This document shows positions 2,171 through 64,000 of a stretch of 64,000 nt of DNA, piece after piece. Each line of letters opens with the position of its first letter. Positions within the stretch are counted from its first letter, which is position 1. The DNA lies in NCBI GenBank assembly GCA_031266915.1, contig JAISAB010000002.1, positions 12,738 to 76,737 of the forward strand, read 5' to 3'. Made by a program: the position numbers and the translations under genes. The DNA is from Rickettsiales bacterium. GTDB lineage: Bacteria > Pseudomonadota > Alphaproteobacteria > Rs-D84. The notes below the pieces were generated by a model. That model was not told the origin of the DNA. It did no database searches and saw nothing but the letters and a program-made list of their open reading frames with translations.

Positions 2171-2175
2171 TCAAA

Positions 2176-20638: not shown

Positions 20639-21124
20639 ATGACGCGCATTTTGGGGATTGACCCCGGGCTTTTGCACACGGGATGGTCTGTGATTGATTC
20701 GGCCGGCAACGCGCGGGCCTATGTCGCCAGCGGCGTGATTCTGCCGCCAAAGACCGAGGAGCTGGCCGTGCGCCTGGCATTTATTTTCCGCGAAGTGTCG
20801 AAATTGCTGGATATATGGAAACCTGACGAATGCTCGGTCGAAATCATATTTGTGAACAAGAATCCGAAAACGACGCTGGTTCTGGGCCAGGCGCGCGCGG
20901 CCGCGCTGATTGCCGTCGCGGACAAGGTTATCCCGGTTTTCGAGTACGAGCCGAACAAGATAAAAAAAGCGCTGAGCGGCGCGGGCCACGCCGACAAGGA
21001 ACAGATTTATAAAATGGTGAAGCTGCTGCTGCCGGTGGCCAATCCGAAAACGTCGGACGAAAGCGACGCGATTGCCATCGCGCTGGCGCATAGTAATATG
21101 AGCAGGGTAATAGTTAGTAAATAG
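20639..21124 (+). CDS. ruvC: Crossover junction endodeoxyribonuclease RuvC
   Basis: MTRILGIDPGLLHTGWSV…; catalytic D/E pattern; …AIAIALAH… C-terminal motif. Confidence 0.85.
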   Translation: MTRILGIDPGLLHTGWSVIDSAGNARAYVASGVILPPKTEELAVRLAFIFREVSKLLDIWKPDECSVEIIFVNKNPKTTLVLGQARAAALIAVADKVIPVFEYEPNKIKKALSGAGHADKEQIYKMVKLLLPVANPKTSDESDAIAIALAHSNMSRVIVSK

Positions 21125-21212
21125 TGATTAGTGCTTAGTTGATAGTGCATAGTTAATTAGTTCACTAATCACTATAAACTATTCACTATACACTACCAAC
21201 TATTTGTTTTTC
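21104..21212. repeat. TAGTNNN-heptad hairpin element between convergent ruvC and the 21211 gene
   Basis: tagtgat tagtgct tagttga tagtgca tagttaa … cactaat cactata aactatt cactata. Confidence 0.7.
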
Positions 21213-21609
21213 AGTTTCCGCACAGCGTGTGCGTGCCGGACGAATCGCGGACCTGGATGCATCCGTTTTGAAACCATATCTTTGCGCGTCCGGCCGGGGC
21301 CGCGGCCGATGGTTCCGATGTCTTGACGGTGTCGAAACGCGCGTCGTCGCCGGCCGCGACGGTGCCTGTATCCGTACCGACGGGAATCCGCGCGATACCT
21401 AATGTTCCACTTGTTATATTCGCCGCATTCGTCTGGTCCAAGTTCTGAACGTTACCGAGGCCGACCTGGGCCGCCGTCACGTTATGCGGATTGTCAGTTC
21501 GCGCGGTGTGCGCGTCGACATAGCTCTTGCCGGCAATTTCCGCCAATGCCGGCGTCGCGGCAAAAAAACATAATAAAAACATAATTCGTTTTTTCATATT
21601 CACAGCCAT
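21211..21609 (-). CDS. Secreted tail-fibre-like protein, short paralog (signal peptide + 'EIAGKSYVD…DNPHNVTAAQVGLGNVQN…' N-module + small Cys C-terminus)
   Basis: N-module about 80% nucleotide-identical to the start of the upstream gene 21600..22475; motifs recalled from phage tail-fibre N-terminal domains. Confidence 0.55.
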   Translation of the reverse strand: MAVNMKKRIMFLLCFFAATPALAEIAGKSYVDAHTARTDNPHNVTAAQVGLGNVQNLDQTNAANITSGTLGIARIPVGTDTGTVAAGDDARFDTVKTSEPSAAAPAGRAKIWFQNGCIQVRDSSGTHTLCGN

Positions 21610-22919: not shown

Positions 22920-23216
22920 ATGAAAGATATGCCAAAAGACCAAATGGAACGCATCATGCACAAGTTGTATCACAAACGCAACTTTCTGCTGCGCGCGTTC
23001 GTAATCAACCTGGTTCTGATAATAGCGGTGTGGGGACTGTCCATGACGGATTTCTATGCGAATATGGCGGGACACTTTATGCACTGTCCGGCGGCGCAGG
23101 CGGAAACGTATACCATGGATTTGCTGGGCGCGTGGAAAATCGCGGGCGTTCTGTTCTTCCTGGTGCCTGCGCTGGCCGCATGGTGGGAACTGCATGCATG
23201 CCGGAAACGCCAATAG
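22920..23216 (+). CDS. Small hypothetical membrane protein (2 transmembrane helices)
   Basis: Two hydrophobic helices; intact ORF with upstream AT-rich promoter region. Confidence 0.45.
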   Translation: MKDMPKDQMERIMHKLYHKRNFLLRAFVINLVLIIAVWGLSMTDFYANMAGHFMHCPAAQAETYTMDLLGAWKIAGVLFFLVPALAAWWELHACRKRQ

Positions 23217-23312
23217 TTATTAGTGCATAGTGATTAGTGCTTAGTTTATAGTACATAGTTAAAATTTACTAAACACTAAGCACTATAAACTATGCACTAC
23301 TCACTAATGACT
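23214..23312. repeat. TAGTNNN-heptad hairpin element (7 heptads per arm) between convergent genes
   Basis: tagttat tagtgca tagtgat tagtgct tagttta tagtaca tagttaa | tactaaa cactaag cactata aactatg cactact cactaat gactatt. Confidence 0.75.
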
Positions 23313-23637
23313 ATTTTCTTATCGTCACCTTTGCCACGGCGTCATAGCCGAAGTATTTGTTTATCTTTGCCGCGATGTCGTCTTTCATATAGGATAATTG
23401 CAGCGCGAACGCCGGATTCGCGGCGCGCACGGCGATATTGAATTTCTTGTCGCGGGTCTTGGTTATCGCGGCCAGCCGCGCAATCGACGCGATGTCGCCG
23501 CCCATGATTTCATCCCAGCGATTGCTCAAATCAGCGTCTGATGCGCGGACGCCGAACAGCCGCATCAATCCCCCGAACGTCGACGCGATGGTCTGGGGGC
23601 GGGCAGTGCGTTTGTTAAGATTAACAGGATTGGCCAT
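23311..23637 (-). CDS. DUF721/DciA-like protein (putative helicase-loader family)
   Basis: …RWDEIMGGDIASIARLAAI…FNIAVRAANPAFALQLSYMKDDIAAKINKYFG…VKVTIRK fits the DUF721 pattern. Confidence 0.5.
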   Translation of the reverse strand: MANPVNLNKRTARPQTIASTFGGLMRLFGVRASDADLSNRWDEIMGGDIASIARLAAITKTRDKKFNIAVRAANPAFALQLSYMKDDIAAKINKYFGYDAVAKVTIRK

Positions 23638-23645
23638 TGTTGAAC

Positions 23646-23740
23646 CATTAGTTTATAGTGATTAGTGCTTAGTTTATAGTGCATAGTTAAATAGCTTACT
23701 AATCACTAAGCACTATTCACTATACACTACAAACTAGTGT
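23646..23740. repeat. TAGTNNN-heptad hairpin element between dciA-like gene and mltA
   Basis: tagtttatagtgattagtgcttagtttatagtgcatagtt … aatcactaagcactattcactatacactacaaactag. Confidence 0.7.
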
Positions 23741-24832
23741 CTAGTAAGGTTTCACATACACGTATTCTTTGGGCATCAGGATGTACATCTCGCCCTGGGA
23801 ATGCTGGCCTTGGGCGTATTTGTACGCGTCGTCGCCCTTGCCGAAGAATATGTCCGCGCGTATCCAGCCGCGGATGGCGCTGCCGGTGTCTTGGGCAATC
23901 ATCAGCCGGCGGAACTTGCGCCCGTCGGATAGGTTCGTGTTGACATATACGGGCAGCCCCAGCGTATACAGCGAATCGTCCATCGCGATGCTGCGGATTT
24001 TCGACAGCGGCGTGCCGATTTTGCCAATCACGTCCGGCGGCACCGACACATAGAAATACACATAGCGCGGATTGTTGTAAATAACCTCGCGCGCAAGCGC
24101 CGGGTTCTGGCGTAGATGCTGCCATACGGCCTCGGACGAATATCCGTTTGCCGGGCGGATGTTTTTCGCCTTCAGCTGTTCCCCAATCGATTTGAACGGC
24201 ATGTCGTTCACGGCCGCGAAGTTCAATTTGACCAGGGTGCCGTCTTCCAGCTGCAGCATGCCGCTGCCTTGGATTTGGATGTTCTGAACATCGACAATGT
24301 TCGCCCAGTACAGAACTTTGCCGATTTGGTTGTTCACGATTGTCTTCTTGTCCACGCCTTTGTACGCTCGCCCGTCAGTCGGAATGCCCATCAGGGGTTC
24401 GTTATACTGTGTGCTTTTGCTTTTCGAGGCAGGGATAATCGGCGAATAATATCCTGTGTATGTTCCTTTGTCTTTGCCGGCATCGTCATGGATTTTATAC
24501 GGCTGGAAGTGCGATTCGAACCAAGCGCGCACGGTCGCGGTGTCCGCGGACGCCGCGGGCAGCATTTTGCACTTTTCTTCGAACAGCGCCGCGTCAGGCA
24601 CGACCCGGCCGACATATTGGATGCGGGCCTTGCAGCTGTTGCGGAACGACTGCAGGGCGTATCGGACGTCATCCTCGCGCCAGCCGGGCAGCTGCGAGTA
24701 CGAAACCGCGCGCAGATTGGACGGCACGGTCGACCGGTTGCCTGTATGATGTGTCGGGCTCGGCGCAGGCCCGCTTAAATCGCAAGATGCCAAAAACAGG
24801 CATAGCACGCCAAGTATCGATATTTTTTTCAT
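23741..24832 (-). CDS. mltA: Membrane-bound lytic murein transglycosylase A (MltA-like lipoprotein)
   Basis: Lipobox LFLASC; MltA/3D-domain motifs (…QDTGSAIRG…); size about 360 aa. Confidence 0.7.
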   Translation of the reverse strand: MKKISILGVLCLFLASCDLSGPAPSPTHHTGNRSTVPSNLRAVSYSQLPGWREDDVRYALQSFRNSCKARIQYVGRVVPDAALFEEKCKMLPAASADTATVRAWFESHFQPYKIHDDAGKDKGTYTGYYSPIIPASKSKSTQYNEPLMGIPTDGRAYKGVDKKTIVNNQIGKVLYWANIVDVQNIQIQGSGMLQLEDGTLVKLNFAAVNDMPFKSIGEQLKAKNIRPANGYSSEAVWQHLRQNPALAREVIYNNPRYVYFYVSVPPDVIGKIGTPLSKIRSIAMDDSLYTLGLPVYVNTNLSDGRKFRRLMIAQDTGSAIRGWIRADIFFGKGDDAYKYAQGQHSQGEMYILMPKEYVYVKPY

Positions 24833-25462: not shown

Positions 25463-25554
25463 AATAGCAAATATCAAATAGCAATTTGGTGCAGAATTGG
25501 GCTATAACACCATAAACGGCACCCCATTTGCTATTTGATATTTGCTAATTGCTA

Positions 25555-25720
25555 TTTTTCTTCTGGACACGGGCGTCACAAAGGCGCACAATGCCATCAC
25601 AGGACCGCTAATCCAAACCATCCTTGGATTGTACATAGTTCCCGTTTTCAAAAATCCCGCATTTCCGCCGTCTCTTATTTCCCATTTATTGCCTAATCTA
25701 AACCATGGTTTTTATATCAT
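25555..25720 (+). promoter_or_regulatory. 165-bp duplicated promoter/5'-UTR block (second copy 63805..63965) containing TTATTGCCTAATCTAAACCATGGTTTTTATATC (-35/-10-like)
   Basis: About 90% identical to 63805..63965; the TTGCCT-N17-TATAT motif is also at 44290 and 44395; upstream of a secreted tail-fibre-like gene. Confidence 0.55.
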
Positions 25721-25743
25721 TCTTGGCAATGGGGAAAAGAGAG

Positions 25744-26605: not shown

Positions 26606-26698
26606 GGCAAATATGATTCGCCCCTACATCACCTGGGTCGCGGGGTCAAGCCCCGCGATGACAAAGCAAGGAGTGACAGCCACTGGATGACAGCTTGA

Positions 26699-26822
26699 GA
26701 AATAGTCTATAGTCGATAGTCATTAGTCTATAGTGATTAGTATTTAGTTGATAATGCATAGTTGACTAGTTTACTGAACACTAACGACTATTGACTATAG
26801 ACTAATGATTATTGACTACACC
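26699..26822. repeat. TAGTNNN-heptad hairpin element
   Basis: tagtctatagtcgatagtcattagtctatagtgattagtatttagttgataatgcatagttgactagtt … and reverse-complement arm. Confidence 0.7.
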
Positions 26823-26863
26823 GTGTGGTTTTGTGATATGATGTTCCAACGGGGGGCGTCTGT

Positions 26864-28049: not shown

Positions 28050-28185
28050 GGATAGCATATAGCGGTAGTTGATAACCATTAGTGATTAGTGCATAGTGTT
28101 TAATTATTAGTAAACTAGTTAACTATTCACTATAAACTAATCACTATTAACTACTGACTAATGACTATTGACTAACAGTTGTTTT
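28050..28185. repeat. TAGTNNN-heptad hairpin element between MFS gene and recA
   Basis: …cattagtgattagtgcatagtgtttaattattagtaaactagttaactattcactataaactaatcactattaactactgactaatgactattgacta. Confidence 0.7.
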
Positions 28186-28223
28186 CTCTGTACCATTTGT
28201 CTTAAGAAAAAAGAGGAAAGGTT

Positions 28224-30252: not shown

Positions 30253-31260
30253 ATGCCGGCAATATCGGTCGTGATACCTGTATATAATGTTGAAAAATAC
30301 CTGCGGCGCTGTTTGGACAGCGTCGCGGGTCAGACTTTCTCGGACTGGGAGGCGATTTGCGTCAACGACGGCAGCCCTGACAACAGCGCCGCGATACTGG
30401 CCGAATACGCCGCACGCGACAAGCGGTTCAAAGTCATCACCAAGGAAAACGGCGGCCTGTCCGACGCGCGCAATGTCGGCACGGACGCCGCGACCGGCGA
30501 CTATCTGATTTATTTGGATTCGGACGATTTTATTCATCCCCAGACGATGGAATTTTCCTATGCGCTGGCGCAGCGCGACGGTTCCGACATCGTATCCTGG
30601 TACAAGGATAAGTTCTTTCGCCCGCAGTTGCTGATATGGTACAAGCTGGGGTTCGACATCGATTCCATGATGCCGCGCCGAATCAAAAAAAGGTACAAGC
30701 TGGAAAAAATCAGGACATGCGTCACGGACGATGTCTTCGCGCATACGACCGAGCGTCCGAACAGCAGCATCAAATGGCCCATCAAGCATTTTTACGTATG
30801 GCGCCATTTAATCCGCCGCGAATTCATCAAAGGAATAAAATTCATCAAGGGAATCACTTTCGAGGATTTTCCCTGGTGGTCCGAGGTCATGCTGCACCAT
30901 CCGCGCGTCACGATTACCAAGCTGCCGTTCCTTTATTACTTTCCGAACCTTAATTCCATCGACATGGCGTCCAACGAGGTCAAGAAAGTGCGCAACTGGA
31001 TAATCGGTTTGGAATCGTCTTACAATATGTACAGGGCACGGGCGACCGATTATGAAAAGATCGCATGGGAACGCGAAGTCATGTGGCCGGTCATCGTCTA
31101 TCAGATTTTTCGCAAGGTAAGATATATCAAAAAGTCGGCGGATGCCGAATTTATCAAAGAGACGTTGCTGCGTTTCAAAGAAATGGGCATGTTCGACAAT
31201 CCACAGACCTGGCGGGCAAAAATATATCAGCGCAGAATTTTGAAGTATATCAATCAATAG
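30253..31260 (+). CDS. Family 2 glycosyltransferase
   Basis: ISVVIPVYNVEKYLRRCLDSV…NDGSPD…YLDSDD GT2 motifs. Confidence 0.8.
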   Translation: MPAISVVIPVYNVEKYLRRCLDSVAGQTFSDWEAICVNDGSPDNSAAILAEYAARDKRFKVITKENGGLSDARNVGTDAATGDYLIYLDSDDFIHPQTMEFSYALAQRDGSDIVSWYKDKFFRPQLLIWYKLGFDIDSMMPRRIKKRYKLEKIRTCVTDDVFAHTTERPNSSIKWPIKHFYVWRHLIRREFIKGIKFIKGITFEDFPWWSEVMLHHPRVTITKLPFLYYFPNLNSIDMASNEVKKVRNWIIGLESSYNMYRARATDYEKIAWEREVMWPVIVYQIFRKVRYIKKSADAEFIKETLLRFKEMGMFDNPQTWRAKIYQRRILKYINQ

Positions 31261-31352
31261 TCATTAGTGAGTAGTGCATAGTTTATAGTGATTAGTGAAT
31301 TAGTTAACTATGCACTATAAACTAAGCACTAATCACTATGCACTAACTATTA
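31256..31352. repeat. TAGTNNN-heptad hairpin element between convergent glycosyltransferase genes
   Basis: tagtcattagtgagtagtgcatagtttatagtgattagtgaattagtt | aactatgcactataaactaagcactaatcactatgcactaacta. Confidence 0.7.
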
Positions 31353-32210
31353 AATATTGTATTCCCGGAATCGCGATGGGATTTTTGTGACCAGTTTGAT
31401 GCCAAACATAAACGGCTTGTTCCATGCATATGGCGGTCGGAATACCGTCTGCATCGCGCGCGCCAATTTGATATAGGACGCGCGGCGGCGCTTTTTCCGT
31501 GTGATGATAAAAATCGTTTCGGCGCGGCGCGCCAGATGTTTCCGCCAATTCGGATTCCGGTCGCCGATTTTGTTTCGAAGCATCTCGTAATCAACACTGC
31601 CGAAATGCAACAGGTGCAGATTTTTATCAATATGGAAATTGTGTCTTTTGACGCTGTGAAATCCGCTGCCCCAGCGCAGCGGTTTCGCCAAGACCACAGG
31701 CTTGGTATAGCGCGTCGACAGCAGGGCGTATTCGCGCTGCGCCAGGAATGGCTCGTTCGCGTCCAATGGATATTCGCGATTCAAATCCTGACCGACGTCC
31801 AGGCCCAGGCCTGAAACAGAGGTTTTAATGTCCGCGTCCGACAAATATTGTTTCAGCGTCTTGCCAACCGCCGGGTTGACGACCAGGAATTCGTCGCAAT
31901 CGCATCCGATAACCAAGTCATATCCCTGGGCAAACAATTCCGTGGCCCGTTTTGACAGCAATCTGATGCGGTGTTTGTCGCCGGCCCGGCGGGACAGCCC
32001 GTCGATATGTTCCATCTTGGTTATATGGGCGTTTCGGGCGCCGCCTGGGATTTTCTGGTCCAGACCGTCAAGGTAGATGTACAGATTTTCTTCGCCCAAT
32101 TGTTCGCCGTAATAGGCAATCCAACGGTTCAGAAAGAACTCGTCATTTCGCGCCATAGTTATCGCGGCGATTCTATTCCCGCGCCGACGGGAATCCTTTG
32201 TATTTGACAT
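31350..32210 (-). CDS. Putative glycosyltransferase (GT2-like fold)
   Basis: Within the glycosyltransferase cluster; IAAITMARNDEFFLNRWIAYY…YLDGLD resembles GT2-type N-terminal motifs (weak). Confidence 0.45.
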   Translation of the reverse strand: MSNTKDSRRRGNRIAAITMARNDEFFLNRWIAYYGEQLGEENLYIYLDGLDQKIPGGARNAHITKMEHIDGLSRRAGDKHRIRLLSKRATELFAQGYDLVIGCDCDEFLVVNPAVGKTLKQYLSDADIKTSVSGLGLDVGQDLNREYPLDANEPFLAQREYALLSTRYTKPVVLAKPLRWGSGFHSVKRHNFHIDKNLHLLHFGSVDYEMLRNKIGDRNPNWRKHLARRAETIFIITRKKRRRASYIKLARAMQTVFRPPYAWNKPFMFGIKLVTKIPSRFREYNI

Positions 32211-37249: not shown

Positions 37250-37276
37250 AAAACCGCCCGCCCGGGCGGTTTTTTC
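37250..37276 (+). terminator. Rho-independent terminator (aaaaccgcccgcccgggcggttttttc)
   Basis: GC hairpin plus T-run. Confidence 0.75.
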
Positions 37277-37280
37277 GTAA

Positions 37281-37306
37281 ATCGTGACTCGTGATTCGTG
37301 AATCGC
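37281..37306. repeat. TCGTGAC/TCGTGAT/TCGTGAA heptamer tract (reverse complement of the CGAATCA repeat found in ftsK and rsmI)
   Basis: atcgtgactcgtgattcgtgaatcg. Confidence 0.6.
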
Positions 37307-43255: not shown

Positions 43256-44167
43256 ATGTATGACGTTATTATTTTGGGCTCGGGACCGGCCGGATTGACG
43301 GCGGCGCTGTATTGCGCCCGCGCAGGAAAGCGGACGCTGGTCCTGGGCGGCGACAAGCTGGGCGGCCAGACGGCCGGCATCGCCATATTGGAAAATTACC
43401 CGGGCTGGGCCGGCAGTGGGCTGGAACTGTCCAAATTCATAAAGAACCAGGCGACTAGCTTCGGCGCTGAGATTATTCTCGCCAGCGCGAAATCTGTTAC
43501 GGCGAATCAGAAACAGGGAATCGGATTTACGGTCGTTGCCGACAACGCGGCGGAATATGAATCGCGGGCCGTCATCGCGTCGACCGGCGCGTCGCCGCGC
43601 AAGTTGGAAATCGCCGGCGCGCGCGAATTGTTCGGCCGTGGCGTATCCTATTGCGCGACGTGCGATGGATTCTTTTACAACGGCAAGAGCGTACTGGTCA
43701 TCGGCGGCGGGAATTCCGCGCTGAACGACGCGCTGTATCTGGCGGATTTGGCCGAAACGGTAAAGATTGTTTATCGCAAGGATTCCTTTGCCCGCGCCGA
43801 ACAGGTTATGGTCGACCGCGTCAATGAAAGGTCCAACATCGAATGTCTGTTCAACACGGAACTGGCAAGCCTGGCGCTTAAACCGGACAGCGCGGATGGC
43901 GAATTGATTGCGACCACGACAAGCGGCGATACGATTGCATGCGACGGCGTGTTTGTCGCCATCGGGCACGAGGCCAATACGGATTATCTGCCCGAAGACA
44001 TCAAGCGCGACGACATGGGGCGTCTGGCGCAAAGCGAATTGCCGCCGGGCCTGTTTGTTGCCGGCGACGTGCAAAGCGACCTGAAGATGCAGATTGCAAC
44101 TGCGGTCGGCACTGGCTGTTCGGCCGCGATGGACGCGATTGCGTTTATTAACACCAGTAGTGAATAG
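43256..44167 (+). CDS. trxB: Thioredoxin-disulfide reductase TrxB
   Basis: MYDVIILGSGPAGLTAALYCARAG…CATCDGF…GGGNSALNDALYL; ATG at 43256 with GGAGA Shine-Dalgarno. Confidence 0.9.
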   Translation: MYDVIILGSGPAGLTAALYCARAGKRTLVLGGDKLGGQTAGIAILENYPGWAGSGLELSKFIKNQATSFGAEIILASAKSVTANQKQGIGFTVVADNAAEYESRAVIASTGASPRKLEIAGARELFGRGVSYCATCDGFFYNGKSVLVIGGGNSALNDALYLADLAETVKIVYRKDSFARAEQVMVDRVNERSNIECLFNTELASLALKPDSADGELIATTTSGDTIACDGVFVAIGHEANTDYLPEDIKRDDMGRLAQSELPPGLFVAGDVQSDLKMQIATAVGTGCSAAMDAIAFINTSSE

Positions 44168-44262
44168 TCATTAGTCAGTAGTCTATAGTCAATTAGTTAA
44201 TAAAGTCGTCGGCTCCGCCGACACATTCACTAGTGACTATTGACTAATGACTATTCACTAGC
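44160..44262. repeat. TAGTNNN-heptad hairpin element with central GC hairpin (gtcgtcggctccgccgacac)
   Basis: agtgaatagtcattagtcagtagtctatagtcaattagtt … cactagtgactattgactaatgactattcactag. Confidence 0.7.
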
Positions 44263-44509
44263 GTTTTAATAGTTGACTTTTTTCACGATAAATACTATTG
44301 TCAGCGTGACGGATTGCCTAATCTAAACCAGCGTTTTTGCGACGCTTTTTTTATGTTTTTTATTCATTGGTTTTCTCGGCTTTTTTCATTTCTTTTATTG
44401 CCTAATCCAAACGCTGGTTTTGATTAGCAGTCTGGGGGTTGCCATAAAGGCGCGGGTTTCCCAGTGTTTTTTGCCTTTTAAACAGGTTGCGAAAATCGGG
44501 GTTCCGATT

Positions 44510-45276: not shown

Positions 45277-47001
45277 ATGAAATACACATTGAAAAACAAC
45301 CTGATAAAGATGGCGGTCTGGTCGAAATCGGCTGCATTGACAGCATTAATGTTCATGGCGGCATGCGACGGGACGGAGCCGATTGAACCGGTCAATCCGA
45401 CGCCGGAACCAGGACCGGAACCGAAAACGGAAAAGGTTCAAATAAATCTGAATGCCTTGTCCGATTTCGAATCGAATCTGAAAACTCCGCGACGCGACGG
45501 CAAGACCTATGACGCGTTTGTTTTGCAAGACATCGCCGCGGATTCGGTTGGTCTGGCGAAAACCTTGGCCGACTGGAAATCGATGAACGACACCGTGCCG
45601 AATTTAAAAACGGATTGGAAAGGTAAGGGAATTTACGTTCCAAAAAAGAAAACCGTTTACGCGTTCGGCGATTATGTTGCGGCTGGAATGCCAAAGATTA
45701 TCGCGAACCCTGAAAACGGCGTTATGCCGTCTGCGGCCAGCGCGGCCGATTCGACGGAATACAGCAAGCTGGGGCTGACGCTTGAAGTCCGCCGGGAAAA
45801 AGCGTCGAACGACGCTGAAACTGTCGAGGATTTAGCGAACTTGGTCAACGCTGCGCAGGTCGCAACGGAGCCGGTCGTTATCAACGTGACGGACGTTCTA
45901 GAGGTCGGCAACGGCAATGCCGGGAAGCTGGAAGCCGCTTTGGCGCAGATAGTTGCAAGCCCAAACATAAGCGTCGGGGGAAAGATAGAGATTGCGCCTA
46001 CAAGTGATTCGGTCGCGGTAACGAATGCCTTTATTGGGAATCTGGCTGCGACGAATGGTCGGATAGTCGGCGGCGGCGCGAACGCGTTGTTTATAAATGA
46101 TGTCAAAGATTCGGAAACCCTGCGCACAGTTCTGGCCGATGGCGCGCGGGTCAGAACGGACGTGTCCGTGAACTTCGCGAATACGGATATTGCGATTCCG
46201 AATCAAATAATCTATAACGCAAATGCGCAATTAATGGGCGCCGCGACAAAATCCGCCGCGGTCGCGCCGACATTCGCCCAGGGCGTCAGGGGACTGCCGT
46301 CGCGCAATGGGTGGCGGAATAAGAACTATCGCCTGCGGACTGAATCCAGCATCGACCTGTATAATAACGAGGAGGAAATACTGTCGCGCATATCGCAGCC
46401 GTCCGTTCGCGGCACGGTCGATTATCCGAATCCTGACATCTGGTGCGATAACGACCCGGTTTATCGAAACATATTTCTGGACAAGACACGGGTGTATTCT
46501 GATTCAGTCGGTTTGGCGATTAACCAGCGCGTCAAAGGCTCGCACGGTCAGACCAAGATACGCACGGTCAGCATGTCGTCGGCTATGTCGTATGACATCG
46601 CGCATTATTACGAAGATGCGAACATGGTGACAAAATCGCCGGGCGGCATAGAGCGGCTGCAGGTTATTCTGCTGCATATTAACAGCGCGAGATTGCCGCT
46701 GAATAATCCTGTATTGGCCGAGCATGCGGACTTGCACGTTTTTCCGTATACGATTGACGCGATGAAGTATTGCTTTGTGGTGCCAGATAATGTCGTTTTG
46801 GAAAAAGGGGATGGATTTGAAGTTATGTTTGAGAACGACAGAAAGGTGATGAAGCTGATAGAGGGCGCCGGCGTTATCACAATATCGAACCGCAAGGTGA
46901 ATGATGCGGGCGCGGGCATTCTGGGTCAGAGAAAGAGTTTCTTTTGGATAACGTCCGAAGAGTACGCCCAGTACGTCGCCGATGGAAAACGGGCAAGATA
47001 A
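45277..47001 (+). CDS. Large hypothetical lipoprotein (574 aa)
   Basis: Lipobox LMFMAAC; Pro/Glu-rich linker then a long soluble domain; no recognised family. Confidence 0.55.
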   Translation: MKYTLKNNLIKMAVWSKSAALTALMFMAACDGTEPIEPVNPTPEPGPEPKTEKVQINLNALSDFESNLKTPRRDGKTYDAFVLQDIAADSVGLAKTLADWKSMNDTVPNLKTDWKGKGIYVPKKKTVYAFGDYVAAGMPKIIANPENGVMPSAASAADSTEYSKLGLTLEVRREKASNDAETVEDLANLVNAAQVATEPVVINVTDVLEVGNGNAGKLEAALAQIVASPNISVGGKIEIAPTSDSVAVTNAFIGNLAATNGRIVGGGANALFINDVKDSETLRTVLADGARVRTDVSVNFANTDIAIPNQIIYNANAQLMGAATKSAAVAPTFAQGVRGLPSRNGWRNKNYRLRTESSIDLYNNEEEILSRISQPSVRGTVDYPNPDIWCDNDPVYRNIFLDKTRVYSDSVGLAINQRVKGSHGQTKIRTVSMSSAMSYDIAHYYEDANMVTKSPGGIERLQVILLHINSARLPLNNPVLAEHADLHVFPYTIDAMKYCFVVPDNVVLEKGDGFEVMFENDRKVMKLIEGAGVITISNRKVNDAGAGILGQRKSFFWITSEEYAQYVADGKRAR

Positions 47002-47003
47002 AT

Positions 47004-47122
47004 AATAGTCAATAGTCTATAGTCGTTAGTTATTAGTGAAGGTGTCGCGCAACCTGTCCACCGAAGCCTTGGCGAAGGTGGAAGCGCGACGACTTTATTA
47101 ACTATTGACTAATAACTATTTC
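47004..47122. repeat. TAGTNNN-heptad hairpin element with extended central GC hairpin (gtgtcgcgc…ccaccgaagccttggcgaaggtgg…gcgcgacgac)
   Basis: The central hairpin is related to that of 11330..11437. Confidence 0.7.
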
Positions 47123-47659: not shown

Positions 47660-48631
47660 TTATAACTTCCTCCGCGCCAGCGGATGGTGCTGTTCGACGG
47701 TGTCCCGCAGTTTCTGGGGCAGGACGTGCGTGTATATCTGCGTGGTGGAAATATCCTCGTGCCCCAGCATGGTCTGAATCGCGCGCAGGTTCGCGCCGCC
47801 CGCCAGCAGATGCGACGCGAACGAATGCCGCAGGACGTGCGGGCTGACGCGATTCGGGTCGATTCCGGCCAGGACCGTGCACTTTTTCAATATCTTGAAA
47901 AATCCGTCGCGGGTTATGTGACCCGTCTTGCTGTTTGATGGAAAAACATATTTTGAGGTCGCAGAGCGCAGAGCACAGAGCGCAGGTTTCGCCGCTTCGC
48001 GGCAGAGCGAAGAGCGCAGGTCGCAGGTAGAAGGTGTTGATAATGACGAACCACCTTCGCTCTGCGTTCTGCGACCTTCCACCTGTTGCGCATCCATCCA
48101 CTTGCCCAGCGCGCGCTGGGCGGATTCGTGCATCGGGACCAGACGTTCCTTGGCGCCCTTGCCGTGAATCAGCAACTTGTCGCCCAAGACGGCGGTAACG
48201 GGCAGCTCGCACAGCTCGGACACGCGCAAACCCGACGCGTACAGCAATTCCAGCATGGCCCGCAGGCGCAGTGAATTTTTAATATCGCCGGCGCTGGATA
48301 TTAGCAGCTCGATTTCGTCGACCGACAGGAATTTCGGCAACGTTTTCTGGCGCTTGGGCAATTCCAAGCCAATCGACGGATTGGCATGGATGATTTTTTC
48401 CAACATCAGGAATTTGTAAAATCCGCGCAGAGAGCTGGCCTTGCGCGCAACCGACGACGCGCGGCAGGGCAGGGACGACAGATACGACTGCAGCGCCTCG
48501 GCGGTCGTGGCCGTCAAATCGCCCAGATGATTCTGCGCGTGCGACAGGTCGCTGCCATAGCTTTCCAGCGTTTTTCTGCTGCGGCCTTTTTCGGCCGACA
48601 GGGCCTCTAAAAATATCTCGATACAATTCAT
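47660..48631 (-). CDS. XerC/XerD-family tyrosine recombinase carrying an in-frame palindromic-element insertion
   Basis: …HVLRHSFASHLLAGGANLRAIQTMLGHEDISTTQIYTHV… catalytic R-H-R-Y box; start at MNCIEIF (ATG 48631). Confidence 0.8.
   Translation of the reverse strand: MNCIEIFLEALSAEKGRSRKTLESYGSDLSHAQNHLGDLTATTAEALQSYLSSLPCRASSVARKASSLRGFYKFLMLEKIIHANPSIGLELPKRQKTLPKFLSVDEIELLISSAGDIKNSLRLRAMLELLYASGLRVSELCELPVTAVLGDKLLIHGKGAKERLVPMHESAQRALGKWMDAQQVEGRRTQSEGGSSLSTPSTCDLRSSLCREAAKPALCALRSATSKYVFPSNSKTGHITRDGFFKILKKCTVLAGIDPNRVSPHVLRHSFASHLLAGGANLRAIQTMLGHEDISTTQIYTHVLPQKLRDTVEQHHPLARRKL
47946..48079 (+). repeat. Second copy of the palindromic element of about 130 bp (terminal inverted repeat AGGTCGCAG…CTGCGACCT), in-frame in xerC/D in the opposite orientation relative to the host gene
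   Basis: About 85-90% identical to 10217..10340; adds about 45 aa (…QQVEGRRTQSEGGSSLSTPSTCDLRSSLCREAAKPALCALRSATS…). Confidence 0.8.
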
Positions 48632-52777: not shown

Positions 52778-53050
52778 TCCAAACCTCCTTTTTTAGCGAA
52801 TGAAAAAACCGCCGGGAAAAAGGCGGTCGGGAGGTTTACGACAATCCAATGAATTGTGCCGCTTATTCAATATATTCGCGAGCCCTCCCAACCAAGTCGG
52901 GAGATATTTTTCGCCGCAATAACAAAAATGGCGCGAAAGCGCGCCGATTTGTCAACAGCGCATTGGAAAGAGGTCGTAACACCCCGTCGCGGAAACTCTC
53001 CGCGGCACTTGAATCATACCAATAGTGAAATGTTTTTACAAGTGGTATAA
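52778..53050 (-). promoter_or_regulatory. Conserved structured 5' leader, subtype 2 (as 12130..12378)
   Basis: Gene-sense: CTCCCGAC/GTTGGGAG hairpin; GAATATATTGAATAAGCGG; AAACCTCCCGACC; terminator GACCGCC-N-GGCGGTT-UUUUUU; CATTCGCTAAAAAAGGAGG-ATG; distal module ccccgtcgcggaaactctccgcggcac. Confidence 0.7.
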
Positions 53051-53672: not shown

Positions 53673-53900
53673 CCAAACCTCCTTTTTTTTTGCGAATGAA
53701 AAAACCACCAGAAATTGGTGGTTGGAGGTTAGCGACTATCATTGCAAATAGCGGCGGTATTCGATATATTCCCGCGCCCTCCAACCGAAACGATTGGAGA
53801 CACAAAAAACATGCACGACAACGCTTCGTGCCAGCGTGCAATGAAGGAGGTCGCTAAACCCCGTCGCGGAAACTCTCCGCGGCACAAAGATTATGCACCG
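53673..53900 (-). promoter_or_regulatory. Conserved structured 5' leader, subtype 2: candidate attenuator/riboswitch
   Basis: Gene-sense: CTCCAA/TTGGAG hairpin; GGTTGGAGG…linker GAATATATCGAATACCGCC…AACCTCCAACC; terminator CCACC-AATTTCT-GGTGG-UUUUUU; CATTCGCAAAAAAAAAGGAGG-ATG. Confidence 0.7.
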
Positions 53901-55861: not shown

Positions 55862-56728
55862 ATGCAATTGAAATTTATGAAGTACAGAAAGCTGTCGTAC
55901 TGGGTTTCCGGCATTTTGGTGGCGCTTAGCGTTCTGTCACTGGCGACGCGCGGATTGAATTACGGCATCGATTTCGCGGGCGGCATTTCGATGGAGGTCA
56001 CGCCAATCTCGGCCGACTACACAATCGACAAGATGCGCCACGACTTGGCCGAATTTGGCCCAGAACTGCAATCGGTGGACAACAACAAATCCATCTTGGT
56101 GCGCGTCGGCCTGCCCAAGGGCGCCACGGACGAGCAGCAGAACCAGCGCGTCCGCGAAATTAAAGAAATCTTGGGCGAAAAAGTTCAATACTCCCAGGTT
56201 CAAATCGTCGGTCCGAAAATCGGCGGCGAACTGGTCCGCGGCGGCATATGGGCGATTCTGATTTCATTCATACTGATGTCGGTTTATATCTGGATTCGAT
56301 ACAAGGGCGGATATGCGGTGGGCTCGTTCGTGTCGCTGGTGCTGGACTTTGTTTTGATGTTCGGATTCTTCTCGGTCGCGGGACTGGAATTCAACCAGAC
56401 GTCCATCGCGGTCATCTTGATGGGTATCGGATATTCCATCAACGACAAGGTCGTGAATTATGACCGCATCGACGAGAACATCAGAAGATACCACAAGATG
56501 CCGATGACGGATTTAATCGACCTGTCGGTGAACGAGATGATGCGCCGGACAATCATGACCTCTGTTTCCACCATCCTGGCCATGATAGGGCTGTACTTGT
56601 TCGGCGGCGGCATGCTGCGGGATTTCTCGGTCGCGATGACGTTCGCGGTCGTTATGGGCACGCTGACAAGCATCTATATATCCAACGTCGTGCTGTATCA
56701 CTTTAACCTGCGCGAGACGGACTATTAA
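55862..56728 (+). CDS. secF: Protein translocase subunit SecF
   Basis: …GIDFAGGISMEV… SecF signature and 6 transmembrane segments. Confidence 0.9.
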   Translation: MQLKFMKYRKLSYWVSGILVALSVLSLATRGLNYGIDFAGGISMEVTPISADYTIDKMRHDLAEFGPELQSVDNNKSILVRVGLPKGATDEQQNQRVREIKEILGEKVQYSQVQIVGPKIGGELVRGGIWAILISFILMSVYIWIRYKGGYAVGSFVSLVLDFVLMFGFFSVAGLEFNQTSIAVILMGIGYSINDKVVNYDRIDENIRRYHKMPMTDLIDLSVNEMMRRTIMTSVSTILAMIGLYLFGGGMLRDFSVAMTFAVVMGTLTSIYISNVVLYHFNLRETDY

Positions 56729-56745
56729 TGGATGAGGGATAAGGG

Positions 56746-58284
56746 ATGATGGGATTTAAAAAAATATTCGACATAAAGATATTATTTGCGTTGATGTCTT
56801 TTCTGCCATCATCCATCATTTATCATCCATTGTTCGCAACCGATTTGTTCCATGAAGATGAAACCGTCCAGGCTGGGCTGAATGTGTTCGCGGTCTCGGA
56901 TGTCTTCGCCGATATATATCAAAAGCTGGACGGGATGTCCTGGGGCGGCAAGACCATCAACGTCGCCATCGAATCGGTGGAAAACATTCACCCTGACGCG
57001 CATATTGCCGCAACGGACGAGCGCGTCGTCCTGGTCTGGCGCGATTCGATTGTCTCGAATTATCCGCGGCCCGCGGCCGGCGACTGGCAGGGATTCGGCC
57101 AGATTACGACCGCGCTGATTGTGAAACTGCGCCAGCTGATTCCCGAATTCGGTCGCGCGTCGGAAAGCGCCATGTACCAAACGGTGGTCGACAGCCTGAT
57201 GCGCGGCGTGGATGAAAACGGCCGGTATATCTATTCGCGCGCGGCCGAAATCGACGAAGATGGTCGGATTCTGACCAGCGCCGGGTTGCAGGGTGGACGC
57301 GACAACCGCGGCAATTTCCGCGTGACCGGCATTTACAAGGATTCACCCGCGGACGTCGGTGGCGTCAAAGCCGGCGATTTGATTACGAAAATGAACGGCG
57401 CGCGCGTCGCGGATATGTCAGAAGCGGATGTGGCGTCCGTGCTGTCGGGCTTTAATTCCGGCACTTTGAAACTGACGGTTCTGGCCCCCGGCGGCGAAAA
57501 GCAGGTAGTTCTACGCCGTGCGACAATCGTTCTGGCGGATGCGGACATCGTTCATCGCGCCGATGCCGACAGCGGCGCGGGATTGCTGGAAATCGTCGTG
57601 CACAAGGTATCGAACGCCTCGGTTTCCATCGTCAACGAAGCCTTGGCAAAATATCCCGATGTGACGGGAATCGTTCTGGACCTGCGCGGCGCGATTGGCG
57701 ACGACGAGCGTGCGGCCGCGAAACTATCCGGCCTGTTTATCGGTCAGGTTCCGGTCATGCGCATTGTCGAGACGGCCCGCGCCGAGGTCGAAATCGTCCC
57801 GGGCGCCGGCAAAGTCGCCGACGCGCCGATTGTCGTTCTAATATCTAACACGACGCGCGGCACGGCCGAGGCCATCGCCGCCGCGTTTTATGAAAACAAT
57901 CGCGGCGTCTTGGTCGGAACGCCGACCGCCGGCAGCGCGCGCATCGCGACAAAAATCGATTTGGAAAACGGCGGCGCGCTGGAATTGCTGAACAAGTCCG
58001 TCAAAACCGGCCGCGGCAGCATAATCGACGGCCGCGGAATTTTCCCACTGGTATGCCTGTCCAATATCCGTTCGAACGAACAGCAGGGCGCCTTTTTCCT
58101 GAACGTGCTGAACGGCGATTTCAAGGCCCAGGACTTTAACGGAAATATGAATCTGACGCCGGACGCCATCCGCAAGGGATGCCCGACCATCACCAGCGGC
58201 GCGGACGAGGATGCGCTGTCCGCCGCCGTTTCGGTTCAGATACTGACGGATAGGAAGATTTATAATAAGCTTATAAGTGAATGA
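56746..58284 (+). CDS. Carboxy-terminal-processing (S41) peptidase with PDZ domain; the N-terminus contains TGGATGA-type heptamer repeats
   Basis: PDZ (…GVKAGDLITKMNGARV…) and S41 motifs (…GIVLDLRGA…, …VLISNTTRGTAEAIAAAF…). Confidence 0.7.
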   Translation: MMGFKKIFDIKILFALMSFLPSSIIYHPLFATDLFHEDETVQAGLNVFAVSDVFADIYQKLDGMSWGGKTINVAIESVENIHPDAHIAATDERVVLVWRDSIVSNYPRPAAGDWQGFGQITTALIVKLRQLIPEFGRASESAMYQTVVDSLMRGVDENGRYIYSRAAEIDEDGRILTSAGLQGGRDNRGNFRVTGIYKDSPADVGGVKAGDLITKMNGARVADMSEADVASVLSGFNSGTLKLTVLAPGGEKQVVLRRATIVLADADIVHRADADSGAGLLEIVVHKVSNASVSIVNEALAKYPDVTGIVLDLRGAIGDDERAAAKLSGLFIGQVPVMRIVETARAEVEIVPGAGKVADAPIVVLISNTTRGTAEAIAAAFYENNRGVLVGTPTAGSARIATKIDLENGGALELLNKSVKTGRGSIIDGRGIFPLVCLSNIRSNEQQGAFFLNVLNGDFKAQDFNGNMNLTPDAIRKGCPTITSGADEDALSAAVSVQILTDRKIYNKLISE

Positions 58285-59360: not shown

Positions 59361-59932
59361 AAAACGCGATAATCATACACGGTATACTAGAGACGCGTGA
59401 AGAATTGTTTGATTCGCCCGTCAGTGCGTCCAATTTTTCTTGGCTGCCGGGGGTTCAAAGACAGTTGGTTCAACGTGGGATTTTGACACAGACCCCCGAA
59501 ATGCCCACGCCGTATATGCCTGATGTTGATTTTGATGGATGGGTTGCGGTTTTCGAACAATTTAACATAGGCAGGGACACATTATTGATAGGACATTCAG
59601 CCGGCGGCGGATTCCTGTTGAAATATTTGTCTTTGAATCCGCAAATTAATCCGGGCCGCTTGATATTGGTCGCGCCGTGGCTGGATATAGATGCCGAGCA
59701 TCCGACATTTTTTCAGAATTTTGACTTGGATATAGATTTGCCGAAACGTATAAACAGAATAGATGTTCTCTATTCGACAGACGATATGAATATAATTATC
59801 AAGTCAATTGATAAAATAAAAAAAGTTTATGGCAATCGGATAAATTATCATGAATTTTCCGACAGAGGTCATTTTGATGAAATTGATACAGGCAAAGATT
59901 TTCCGGAATTGCTGGATGTCATAAATCAATAG
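59357..59932 (+). CDS. Alpha/beta-hydrolase-fold serine hydrolase (RBBP9/YdeN-like), low GC
   Basis: GHSAGG nucleophile elbow; about 190 aa; about 40% GC. Confidence 0.55.
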   Translation: MKNAIIIHGILETREELFDSPVSASNFSWLPGVQRQLVQRGILTQTPEMPTPYMPDVDFDGWVAVFEQFNIGRDTLLIGHSAGGGFLLKYLSLNPQINPGRLILVAPWLDIDAEHPTFFQNFDLDIDLPKRINRIDVLYSTDDMNIIIKSIDKIKKVYGNRINYHEFSDRGHFDEIDTGKDFPELLDVINQ

Positions 59933-60240
59933 TCATTAGTCTATAGTGTTTAGTTGATAGTGCATAGTACCCCTGCTTTCGCAGGGGTGACGAGTCTTGA
60001 GTTTTTGGGACCAAAAAGATACATTCCTGTCAATTGAGCATAAATCCCCCACCGGCGCCAACCAACAATCTCCCTGAATTTTCATCGGCAACAAGTTGCC
60101 GGAAAATTCTCCCCCTCTTTAAACAAGAGGGGCAGGTGTCTGATGCAACTAATCACTATATATACTATGCACTACTCACTATCGACTACTTACTACAGAC
60201 TAATGACTATAGACTACTGACTAACCACTGACACTAACGC
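59928..60240. repeat. Composite element: TAGTNNN-heptad arms (59930..59972 and 60148..60240) flanking about 180 bp of GC hairpins
   Basis: Internal hairpins cccctgctttcgcagggg, cggcaacaagttgccg, ccccctctttaaacaagagggg; MITE-like architecture. Confidence 0.6.
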
Positions 60241-60275: not shown

Positions 60276-62504
60276 ATGGCCGATAATTCGAAATTCTTGC
60301 CGGAACGCGTTTCCGGCGCGTTAAAAAGTCTGGGCGTCCGCGCGGCGGGGGCTGCTTTGTCGCTGTTGGGCGTTTGGCTTGTCTTTGCGCTGGTGTTCGG
60401 CGACCCATATCTGAACGGATTCGCCGCCGCCGGCGGATTTGGAAAACAAAGCCTGGTCGGCAATATCGTCGGATTTATCCGCTACGGCATCGGCTTTGTG
60501 CCGGCATTGTTTCTGTTCCTGTGCCTGGCGCGGACTGGTTTATCGTTTATGCTGAACCGGCCGGCAGAACGCGCGCCGGAATATAATTTATTGCGCGGCT
60601 TTATCGCGGTGTGCGCGGGCGCGGCCGGATTGGGCGCGATGGCGCCATCAGGCACCCTGGGCGGACTGGCGGGCAGCATTGTTGCGAATGACATAGGCGG
60701 AATACTGGGCGGCTGGACAGTCCTGGCGGGGATTCTGTTCTTCGGCGTTTTTGTGCTGATAGCGTGCCGGCTGCTGAATATAAAGCTGAGCGATTTGCGC
60801 GGCATTATCCGCGCAATCTTCAGGTCCGTCGTCTGGCTGCTGTCCGTGTTCCATCTAATCAAGCCGACCGCTGCGCCGAACCAAGACGACGAGGAATACG
60901 AGTACGACGCCGCCACCGACGCTGTGCCCGCAAAAAAAAGCAAAAGGCAAAAGGCCGAGGTTCCGGCAACAAAGCAACCACCGCGTCGGCGAATCACGAG
61001 TCACGAATCACGAGTCACGAACGAATACGAATTGCCGCCGCCGGAATTCCTGGAAAAATCCGTGATGGGCAAGACTTCGATTACGCCGGATCTAAAGCGC
61101 AACGCCGGCGCCCTGGAAACACATTTCGAGGAGTTCGGCGTATACGGACGCGTGATGGGAATCAAGCCGGGTCCCATCGTCACGCTGTATGAATTCCAGC
61201 CCGATTCCGGCGTCCGCATCGCCAAGGTCACCGATACCGTCAAGGACATGACGCGCGCGATGGCGACCGAAAACATCCGTATTGCACATATTCCGCGCAC
61301 CAACTATATCGGCGTTGAGATGGTGAATTTGAACCGCCAGACCCTGCGTTTCCAGTCACTGATAACCAATCCGTCGTTCATGAATTCCAAGTATCGGATA
61401 CCGCTGGCGCTGGGGGTGGACATCGGCGGAAATTCCATGTACTTTGATTTGGCCAGAATGCCGCACGTGCTGATTGCGGGACGCACGGGCTCGGGCAAGT
61501 CCGTGTTCGTGCAATCTATTATAATGTCCGTGCTGTATCACTTTACGCCGGACCGGTGCAAGCTGATGATTGTCGACCCAAAGGGCGTCGATTTTACGCT
61601 GTGGGACAACATACCGCATCTGGTAACGCCCGTTCTGACCGATCCGGCGTCTTCGGTGAACGCGCTGAAGTGGTCCGTGCGCGAAATGGAAGAGCGGTAT
61701 AAAAAACTGAAAGACCTGGGCGTCCAGAATATCGAGGGATACAACGACGCCGTCGCGAAGCTGCGCGCCGCCGGAAAACCGGTCACCAAGCAGATTGCCG
61801 TCGGCACCGACGAAGAGACCGGCGGCTTGATATTCGAGAACCAGGAAATCGATTTATCGGACATGCCGTATCTGGTCATTATTATCGACGAGGTCGCGGA
61901 CCTGATGTCCGTCGCGCGAAAAGAGGTCGAGGCCTGCGTCCAGCGCCTGGCGCAAAAGGCGCGCGCCGCCGGAATCCACCTGGTCGCGGCGACCCAGCGT
62001 CCGGACACGACCGTCATCACCGGCGTCATCAAGGCCAATTTCCCGACGCGCATATCGTTCCAGGCGCGCAGCAACATCGACAGCATGACCACATTGGGCG
62101 AGAAGGGCGCCGAGCAATTGCTGGCGTTCGGCGACATGCTGTTCAGCGAGGCCGGGCGCGTCCCCGTCCGCATCCACGGGTCGCTGATTGAAAATTCCGA
62201 AATCAACAAGGTGGCCGATTTCCTGCGCGCCCAGGGCGAGCCGACGTATGCCGCCGGCGTGACCGACGGAGACGGCGACGACGGATTCGCGGGCGGCGGC
62301 ATGCCGATGTCCAAGGGCGACAAGGATTCCGATTTGTACGAGCAGGCCAAGCAATACGTCGTGCGCGACAAAAAGCCGACGATTTCCTATATCCAGCGCC
62401 GGCTGGGCGTGGGCTATAACAAGGCCGCGGGCTTTATGGAACGCATGGAGGCCGAGGGCGTCGTCAGCCCGCCCGACGCCAACAACAAAAGGCAGATATT
62501 GTAA
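60276..62504 (+). CDS. ftsK: DNA translocase FtsK (with an in-frame CGAATCA/CGAGTCA heptamer tract in the linker)
   Basis: N-terminal transmembrane segments, Walker A GRTGSGKSV, DEVADLM, and a C-terminal winged-helix gamma domain. Confidence 0.9.
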   Translation: MADNSKFLPERVSGALKSLGVRAAGAALSLLGVWLVFALVFGDPYLNGFAAAGGFGKQSLVGNIVGFIRYGIGFVPALFLFLCLARTGLSFMLNRPAERAPEYNLLRGFIAVCAGAAGLGAMAPSGTLGGLAGSIVANDIGGILGGWTVLAGILFFGVFVLIACRLLNIKLSDLRGIIRAIFRSVVWLLSVFHLIKPTAAPNQDDEEYEYDAATDAVPAKKSKRQKAEVPATKQPPRRRITSHESRVTNEYELPPPEFLEKSVMGKTSITPDLKRNAGALETHFEEFGVYGRVMGIKPGPIVTLYEFQPDSGVRIAKVTDTVKDMTRAMATENIRIAHIPRTNYIGVEMVNLNRQTLRFQSLITNPSFMNSKYRIPLALGVDIGGNSMYFDLARMPHVLIAGRTGSGKSVFVQSIIMSVLYHFTPDRCKLMIVDPKGVDFTLWDNIPHLVTPVLTDPASSVNALKWSVREMEERYKKLKDLGVQNIEGYNDAVAKLRAAGKPVTKQIAVGTDEETGGLIFENQEIDLSDMPYLVIIIDEVADLMSVARKEVEACVQRLAQKARAAGIHLVAATQRPDTTVITGVIKANFPTRISFQARSNIDSMTTLGEKGAEQLLAFGDMLFSEAGRVPVRIHGSLIENSEINKVADFLRAQGEPTYAAGVTDGDGDDGFAGGGMPMSKGDKDSDLYEQAKQYVVRDKKPTISYIQRRLGVGYNKAAGFMERMEAEGVVSPPDANNKRQIL
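60990..61027. repeat. CGAATCA/CGAGTCA heptamer tandem tract inside the ftsK linker
   Basis: gaatcacgagtcacgaatcacgagtcacgaacgaatacg encodes …RRITSHESRVTNEYE…; related tracts at 7150..7185 and 37281..37306. Confidence 0.7.
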
Positions 62505-63800: not shown

Positions 63801-63804
63801 ATTT

Positions 63805-63965
63805 ATTTTTTTGCTGGACACGGGCGCCACAAAGGCGCACAATGCGCTTACGGGACCGCTAATCCAAACCATCCTTGGATTGTACATAGTTGCTATTCTT
63901 AAAAATCCCGCATTTCCGCCATATCTTATTTCCCATTTATTGCCTAATCTAAACAATGGTTTTTA
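63805..63965 (+). promoter_or_regulatory. Second copy of the 165-bp promoter/5'-UTR block (see 25555..25720)
   Basis: ctggacacgggcgccacaaaggcgcacaatg…ttattgcctaatctaaacaatggtttttatg; the downstream gene lies beyond the window. Confidence 0.55.
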
Positions 63966-64000
63966 TGTTTTTTCTGAGAATCACAAAACGCTATTGCAGA

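Follow-up and report, generated by a model that had tools for sequence, protein, structure and literature searches.

The stretch of DNA considered here (the window, meaning the whole 64,000 nucleotides that were analysed: positions 12,738 to 76,737 of contig JAISAB010000002.1 in GenBank assembly GCA_031266915.1, a Rickettsiales metagenome-assembled genome, or MAG) carries on its minus strand a gene for a tyrosine recombinase of the XerD type, and within this gene lies a palindromic repeat of 126 nucleotides, built largely of heptamers, a second copy of which lies within addB on the plus strand. It is this element, and the 42 codons that it contributes to xerD, with which the present analysis is concerned. 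The host protein has a two-domain architecture (PF02899 and PF00589 in Pfam), its closest solved structure is that of E. coli XerD (1A0P, E = 6e-47), and its residues R136, K158/K161, H265, R268, H291 and Y300, which align with the catalytic motifs of the E. coli protein, all fall in invariant columns. The general tyrosine recombinase model of NCBIfam, NF001399, matches it with a score of 298.9, above the cutoff of 279, while the XerD-specific model TIGR02225 reaches 283.8, below the cutoff of 329.6, its match being split by the insert. The gene order GreA-LptG-small open reading frame (ORF)-XerD-DnaJ-like is common to the window and to the orthologue loci L001 and L002.

That the segment in the recombinase is the same element as that in AddB, and that both have the same plus-strand orientation, had been proposed in an earlier note made on this DNA, and both points are confirmed. 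A 32-nucleotide word taken from the element matches the window at only two places, 10217-10248 and 47955-47986, both on the plus strand (no such match arose in 100 shuffles), and pairwise alignment of the two copies gives 95% identity across the first 85 nucleotides and about 89% across the right arm, with a 9-nucleotide indel in the loop and with similarity ending abruptly on both sides. The gene coordinates likewise agree with the note in placing addB on the plus strand and the recombinase gene on the minus strand, the element being read in the latter from the opposite strand. The span that the note gave for it, 47946-48079, does contain the repeat, but the left edge was set about 10 nucleotides too far to the left and the right edge 2 nucleotides short. 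No third copy was found in the window by sensitive blastn and tblastn searches. Table 1 collects the relevant coordinates.

Table 1 Positions in the window of the element, its parts and its two host genes, together with examples of a separate class of palindrome.
Feature	Position	Strand	Description	Basis
XerD-type tyrosine recombinase, host gene	47660-48631	minus	323 residues, start MNCIEIF	Identical to NCBI MDR1337549.1 ('Rickettsiales bacterium' MAG)
XerD copy of the repeat	47956-48081	plus; translated from minus strand as XerD V184-T225	126 nt, 42 codons	Flank divergence; empty-site alignment with L001 and L002
Left arm	47956-47990	plus	Five tandem heptamers AGGTCGC AGAGCGC AGAGCAC AGAGCGC AGGTTTC	Tandem repeat of period 7 and heptamer parse; pairs with right arm in fold
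Central mini-hairpin	47991-48003	plus	GCCGC-TTC-GCGGC, 13 nt (GCCGCTTCGCGGC)	Identical in both window copies
Second direct array	48004-48038	plus	Five heptamers AGAGCGA AGAGCGC AGGTCGC AGGTAGA AGGTGTT	Heptamer parse
Loop	48039-48052	plus	GATAATGACGAACC, 14 nt (5 nt in AddB copy)	Copy alignment and parse
Right arm	48053-48081	plus	Complementary heptamers ACCTTCG CTCTGCG TTCTGCG ACCTTCC A	19/20-nt inverted match to left arm
AddB, alphaproteobacterial type, host gene	8534-11203	plus	889 residues	Identical to NCBI MDR1337511.1; best NCBIfam match addB_alphas
AddB copy of the repeat	10218-10335	plus; translated from plus strand	About 118 nt, 9-nt loop deletion; VADRRAQSEGFAASRQSVERRSQVEGVEPPAHCALRPST	Flank divergence and DNA alignment
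AT-rich palindromes, examples	11330-11455, 21108-21216, 23205-23327, 23643-23764, 26697-26839, 28064-28188, 31252-31359, 44156-44281, 47000-47120, 59918-60237			

The copy in xerD can be parsed into five parts containing 14 heptamers in all, those of the first array being of the form AG[AG][GT]CGC. Tandem Repeats Finder (TRF) reports period 7 at 47960-47985 in this copy and at 10308-10326 in that of AddB. Terminal inverted repeats are present, AGGTCGCAGAGCGCAGAGC pairing with GCTCTGCGTTCTGCGACCT, and for RNA of either strand a long hairpin is predicted, with a folding energy of -62 to -66 kcal/mol (z = -4.2 to -5.7). The family as a whole is GC-rich and about 117-126 nucleotides in size, and in the peptides of the other copies the segment encoded by the loop is kept as DNDEPP or DNNEPP.

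Relative to its orthologues, the XerD of the window contains an insertion. The extra segment was unique to this protein in alignments of 17, and then of 96, orthologues; there are thousands of the latter, nearly all of them, among the matches listed, being 283-290 residues long, and in DNA alignments the syntenic loci L001 and L002, which are among the closest orthologues, have an empty site. Expressed in terms of the loop running from K-W to K-Y-V-F-P, the length is 8-14 residues in 74 of 75 related genomes and 21 in one, as against 48 in the window; the earlier note had put the addition at about 45 residues between GKWMDA and KYVFPSN, and there are indeed 45 (QQVEG...RSATS), 42 of which the element encodes. 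Alignment with E. coli XerD places the insert between residues 187 and 203 of that protein, after the helix that follows the lysine-bearing β-hairpin and before the short KYVFPS strand, in what is the only loop of the XerD family that varies in length. A model of the protein made with AlphaFold2, for which the best structural match is again 1A0P, has a predicted local distance difference test score (pLDDT) below 50 for residues 189-223, so that disorder is predicted for the insert. The single 21-residue loop just mentioned (in L007) was considered as a possible further instance of the element and set aside, being neither palindromic nor repeated.

The same loop has been invaded elsewhere by heptamer sequences of other kinds. 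In one further genome (L083, protein P0022) it contains a complete in-frame palindrome of (GGATGAT)-type heptamers (L083:1649-1741, -45 kcal/mol), and in another (L085, protein P0010) it is extended in-frame by heptamer arrays, GAGAGTT-like units being followed by AATCTCA units (L085:10538-10633), with a weak fold and with no second copy within 21 kb. Since these inserts are unrelated and yet occupy one and the same loop, the XerD loop is a recurrent and tolerant landing site for heptamer elements in this clade.

A first alternative is that the arrangement was created during metagenome assembly, by a repeat having been collapsed or mis-joined into xerD; repeats are a frequent cause of misassembly in MAGs, and the source genome is very repeat-rich. 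However, on either side of the insert a single xerD gene continues in one frame, collinear with the orthologues, the gene order around xerD matches that of relatives, the XerD copy is not identical to the AddB copy, and in-frame copies are found in four other genes distributed over three contigs, all of which makes an artefact of this kind hardly credible.

A second possibility is that the insertion has inactivated xerD, or that the gene is on its way to becoming a pseudogene, its open frame then being a recent accident. Genomes in this group are reduced (PMC12306168), the TIGR02225 score lies below its cutoff, and part of the catalytic domain is modelled by AlphaFold2 with low confidence, all of which could be taken in this sense. 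Against this, no sign of decay was found: the 323-codon ORF is intact and annotated as a protein by NCBI, every catalytic residue is kept, the general recombinase model is satisfied, and the insert lies in the one loop whose length varies among relatives. In addition, the two copies in the window differ by 5% and an indel, which suggests an insertion of some age, and still no frameshift has arisen. Comparison of xerD with L001 and L002 gives a proportion of non-synonymous differences (pN) of only 0.09-0.10, that of synonymous differences (pS) being 0.82, i.e. saturated. XerD outside the insert is under strong purifying selection, and inactivation is regarded as very improbable. A practical corollary is that inserts of this kind lower the scores of family-specific hidden Markov models below their cutoffs, as has happened here with the XerD model, and can thereby mislead both annotation and the calling of pseudogenes in MAGs. 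As a separate observation, the GC content of the window is about 52%, as compared with about 40% in the closest syntenic relatives (L001-L003); taken together with the saturation of synonymous sites in xerD, this means that the source lineage has undergone a marked shift in base composition.

The frame in which XerD is read is open throughout the element, just as the earlier note had stated. Its further claims, that the element remains ORF-compatible in both orientations and in several frames, and that this implies selection or design for coding compatibility, fared less well. Both strands are indeed open, but of the six frames only four (one plus, three minus) pass through the element without a stop, which is nothing exceptional for such a composition: when the element is dinucleotide-shuffled, at least four frames are open in 5-19% of cases, and the same holds for 20% of the 126-nucleotide segments of the window and for 52% of those segments with a GC content of at least 0.60. 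The reason can be seen from the heptamers themselves. A unit such as GCAGAGC, together with its complement, contains no TAA, TAG or TGA in any phase, and because 7 is not a multiple of 3 (each frame therefore meeting every phase within 21 nucleotides) arms made from stop-free units are open in all six frames. The only stops in the element are in the loop, where TGA/TAA/TGA interrupt one plus frame, and in the variant unit AGGTAGA, whose TAG closes another. Dyad symmetry has the additional effect that the minus-frame peptide found in XerD resembles the plus-frame peptide (48% identity across 29 residues). Openness in four of six frames thus follows from composition and dyad symmetry, and the idea of design for coding compatibility is rejected on the strength of the shuffle and background statistics and of the heptamer argument; it is needless, survival of tolerable insertions being enough.

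Further copies were sought by comparing the open-frame translations of both copies with a protein database of 5.8 billion sequences. Three more proteins of the same MAG (locus tags LBJ73_) were found to carry the repeat in-frame, namely RlmN (a full copy and a partial one), QueH and a terminase-like protein, so that the element is one member of a repeat family; the number of copies is a lower bound, as AddB is present in this database yet was not returned. All the copies in RlmN, QueH, the terminase-like protein and AddB are in a single open plus-strand frame, with the consensus V-x-E-R-R-A-Q-S-E-G-F-A-A-S-R-Q-S-V-E-R-R-S-Q-V-E-G-V-D-N-N-E-P-P-S-L-C-A-L-R-P-S-T, and the XerD copy is the only one found that is read from the other strand. 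QueH (P0122) has a second odd segment at residues about 181-205, AFAIHLRRGYGGQEATAGRQEQG, which resembles a translated GC-rich repeat other than the element studied here.

Outside the source MAG the repeat was not found in any of the searches made. The only hits of an exhaustive phmmer search with the plus-frame peptide against 1.84 billion representatives, P0124 and P0125, proved to be unrelated translated tandem repeats. The central 22-mer had no exact match in collections of genomes or of metagenome contigs, nor did a 24-mer from the right arm in the metagenome contig collection; as the source MAG is itself absent from these collections, such negatives are informative only as to the absence of close relatives carrying the element. 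Neither blastn nor tblastn searches with the element found a match in 1.39 Mb from 82 related loci, and comparison of the insert peptides with Pfam and NCBIfam gave no family at E <= 1. The nearest XerD loci are those of termite-gut MAGs also labelled 'Rickettsiales bacterium' and of MAGs of Candidatus Enterousia, a genus placed in the order Rs-D84, in which genomes do not exceed about 1 Mb and dependence on some partner organism is probable (PMC12306168).

In five of the six in-frame copies known it is the plus frame that is used, for which P is about 0.005 if the four open frames are taken to be equally likely, although the numbers are small and the copies come from a search that was not exhaustive. 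This plus frame is the most hydrophilic of the open frames, with a grand average of hydropathy (GRAVY) of -0.91, and the frame used in XerD (GRAVY -0.54) is the most hydrophilic of the three minus frames. Selection probably acts here as a filter on which insertions survive.

One might go further and suppose that the insert has been co-opted, either because the 42-residue peptide confers something new on its hosts (a disordered linker, say, or a surface for interactions), or because a hairpin in mRNA or DNA regulates the host genes. Besides the non-random use of frames, a very stable hairpin is predicted for both strands (z about -4 to -6), and the indels in the AddB and terminase copies are in-frame and so keep the reading frame. 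However, the frame would have to be preserved in any case if the host gene is to survive, the peptide differs between the two orientations, it matches no Pfam or NCBIfam family, disorder is predicted for it, its host genes have unrelated functions, and all relatives, the closest orthologues included, lack the element. Co-option is therefore thought unlikely.

The explanation preferred here is that the XerD segment is a copy of a lineage-specific, non-autonomous, selfish palindromic repeat, similar to the Rickettsia palindromic elements (RPEs) discussed below, which is tolerated in a permissive loop, and this is considered probable. According to this explanation, a repeat consisting of tandem heptamers in an inverted-repeat layout would have spread to several sites in the genome of its host, an uncultured gut alphaproteobacterium, and one copy would have landed in the variable loop of xerD between the helix after the lysine hairpin and the KYVFPS strand. 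The frame of xerD would have been kept, despite the reverse orientation, because the length of the element is a multiple of three and its heptamers are free of stop triplets on either strand, and translation of the insert would then have added 42 hydrophilic, probably disordered residues to XerD, presumably with little effect on its function. Persistence of such insertions would require a tolerant host protein, so that the copies now seen would be the survivors.

Several points must be set against this explanation. The first concerns mobility: no target-site duplication is visible at either the AddB or the XerD copy, the flanks (...ACAA/element/TTGCTG in AddB, ...TTTTG/element/GTTGCG in XerD) having no common or duplicated bases, a reading limited by the fact that the exact ancestral sequence of the XerD loop is not reconstructable. 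A check of the window's 10 least-characterised ORFs likewise revealed no transposase domain or partner insertion sequence. The window contains no intergenic copy, unlike the case of RPEs, though with a coding density of about 85% finding two copies out of two within genes is not significant. The element is seen in one MAG only, and the junctions in xerD are those of the assembly. The AlphaFold2 model is mediocre (predicted template modelling score, pTM, 0.50), part of the C-terminal domain also being of low confidence. Finally, the preponderance of one frame, used by five of the six copies, points to one of two things: insertion that favours an orientation, or selection acting on the peptide over and above simple tolerance.

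The window contains many other repeats. TRF lists 50 rows of period 7, as against 2.2 expected from order-3 Markov simulations; of 52 merged period-7 arrays 15 are inside ORFs, and such arrays are present in some relatives and absent in others. Large palindromes made of tandem heptamers in the AT-rich form (TAGTNNN)n...(NNNACTA)n are found at about a dozen sites, of which Table 1 gives examples, and these have stop triplets in every unit and are either intergenic or overlap the ends of ORFs only; some of them flank a GC-rich hairpin, as at 47040-47095 between convergent genes. In the gene for MnmE (17391-18716, minus strand) an array of the (GGATGAT) type occurs in-frame twice, at 17697-17736 and 18591-18630, encoding PSSIIHHPSSI, and a related copy lies at 56720-56759. 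The heptamer CGAATCA/CGAGTCA or its complement is found at 7151-7181, 37275-37305 and 60990-61021, two of these sites being located at the 5' edges of ORFs, while the remaining one falls within the ORF at 60276-62504. A separate intergenic family is represented by an inverted repeat of 144 nucleotides with 81% identity (12212-12355 / 52805-52948), and close to its second member is a 43-nucleotide direct repeat with 91% identity (52966-53008 / 53843-53885). A direct repeat of 178 nucleotides with 88% identity (25553-25730 / 63804-63981) connects two intergenic regions 38 kb apart, and may represent a duplicated promoter, leader or small RNA.

Also within the window, positions 2001-4000 form an island of low GC content (36.5% vs about 52%) that adjoins two tRNA genes (4341-4412 and 4505-4588) and contains an ORF (2317-3822, minus strand) in which a T5orf172/GIY-YIG-like domain is fused to an adenine methyltransferase of the EcoRI type; this island was probably acquired horizontally.

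A bolder proposal would be that the element belongs to an undescribed class of gene-dwelling heptamer-array repeats that are inserted in an orientation tracking the replication fork rather than the host gene. Both copies in the window do have one orientation, on a stretch whose GC skew is uniformly positive, while their host genes lie on opposite strands, but with n = 2 copies this does not amount to evidence for a connection with skew, and the proposal is put forward as a doubtful one. Were it true, insertion would depend on a hairpin or on single-stranded DNA, as in the IS200/IS605 or RAYT (REP-associated tyrosine transposase) systems, the stop-free heptamers would let the element colonise coding sequence from either strand, and the AT-rich intergenic (TAGTNNN)n palindromes and the intragenic palindromes of the GC-rich or GGATGAT type would share one generating mechanism.

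It remains to compare the element with known systems. In-frame palindromic repeats were originally put forward as something peculiar to Rickettsia. The RPEs, comprising RPE-1 and related families, are reportedly due to Ogata et al. in 2000 and 2002, and RPE-like repeats in Wolbachia are said to have been described by Ogata et al. in 2005. RPEs are palindromic repeats of 100-150 bp that occur in-frame in many conserved genes with conservation of the encoded peptide (PMC10969869, PMC2229807, PMC1779305); an RPE-bearing guanylate kinase has been found to be translated and active (PMC2229807, PMC10969869), and in Table 1 of PMC2229807 the target duplication of RPEs is entered as '?'. The likeness is considerable: in each case there is a dispersed repeat, some 100-150 bp long, which has dyad symmetry and is predicted to form a stable stem-loop, located in-frame in unrelated conserved genes whose orthologues elsewhere have no insert (for the present element this was demonstrated for XerD), encoding a recognisable hydrophilic peptide in an alphaproteobacterial host of reduced genome size, and having no known transposase and no clear target-site duplication. 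On the other hand, the present element is GC-rich and composed of tandem heptamers, its XerD copy is translated from the opposite strand, and its host is close to Candidatus Enterousia (order Rs-D84) rather than belonging to Rickettsia or the Rickettsiaceae. NCBIfam, which inherits the RPE domain models of TIGRFAM, contains no curated family that the element's peptides match, and the same is true of Pfam, a comparison made at the level of peptides and not with the nucleotide RPE consensus. As far as sequence and host can tell, the element would thus appear to be RPE-like in its mode but not a member of an RPE family.

Among MITEs, which are miniature inverted-repeat transposable elements, the 107-bp form of Correia/NEMIS, ERIC and YPAL have been found fused in-frame to genes (Delihas 2007/2008, PMC2229807). 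Like the element, these repeats are small and non-autonomous, end in inverted repeats and give transcripts that form stem-loops; they include open-frame forms inside genes and stop-bearing forms between them, and two reading frames of the 107-bp Correia form are usable. They differ in their TA target duplication or termini and, for some of them, in a candidate cognate transposase, neither of which was found for the element, the check for a transposase covering 10 ORFs of the window. Of the features by which a MITE is recognised, the element has the terminal inverted repeats but no visible target duplication.

Heptamer arrays are known from Calothrix and Nostoc, and GGGAATC arrays, some of them arranged as inverted repeats, from Xanthomonas (PMC4692102). 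With these the window shares an excess of period 7, arrays typically of about four units, and inverted pairs capable of forming stem-loops, but the known arrays are said to lie chiefly between genes and to expand locally, whereas the element is an intragenic compound structure (array, mini-hairpin, array, loop, inverted array) that has been copied to distant loci at 95% identity. The repetitive extragenic palindromic sequences (REPs) are 20-40 bp in length, extragenic, and marked by a GTAG or CGTC tag (PMC3733652). REPs and the bacterial interspersed mosaic elements (BIMEs), which are mobilised by RAYTs, are like the element in being palindromic, dispersed and capable of forming hairpins, but the element is about 126 nucleotides long, intragenic, and starts with AGGTCGC.

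Seen against these systems, the element is an independent family of coding palindromes, unrelated in sequence to the others and found in a different lineage of alphaproteobacteria, which have reduced genomes and are associated with animal and termite guts, and not a new kind of system. As such it favours the idea that coding sequence is open to selfish repeats wherever surface loops permit, and that these repeats add disordered segments to essential proteins. Two of its details deserve mention, its construction from heptamers and its use from both strands. It also illustrates how coding compatibility on both strands and in several frames can arise without design, from dyad symmetry and from tandem units of 7 nucleotides in which stop triplets are lacking.

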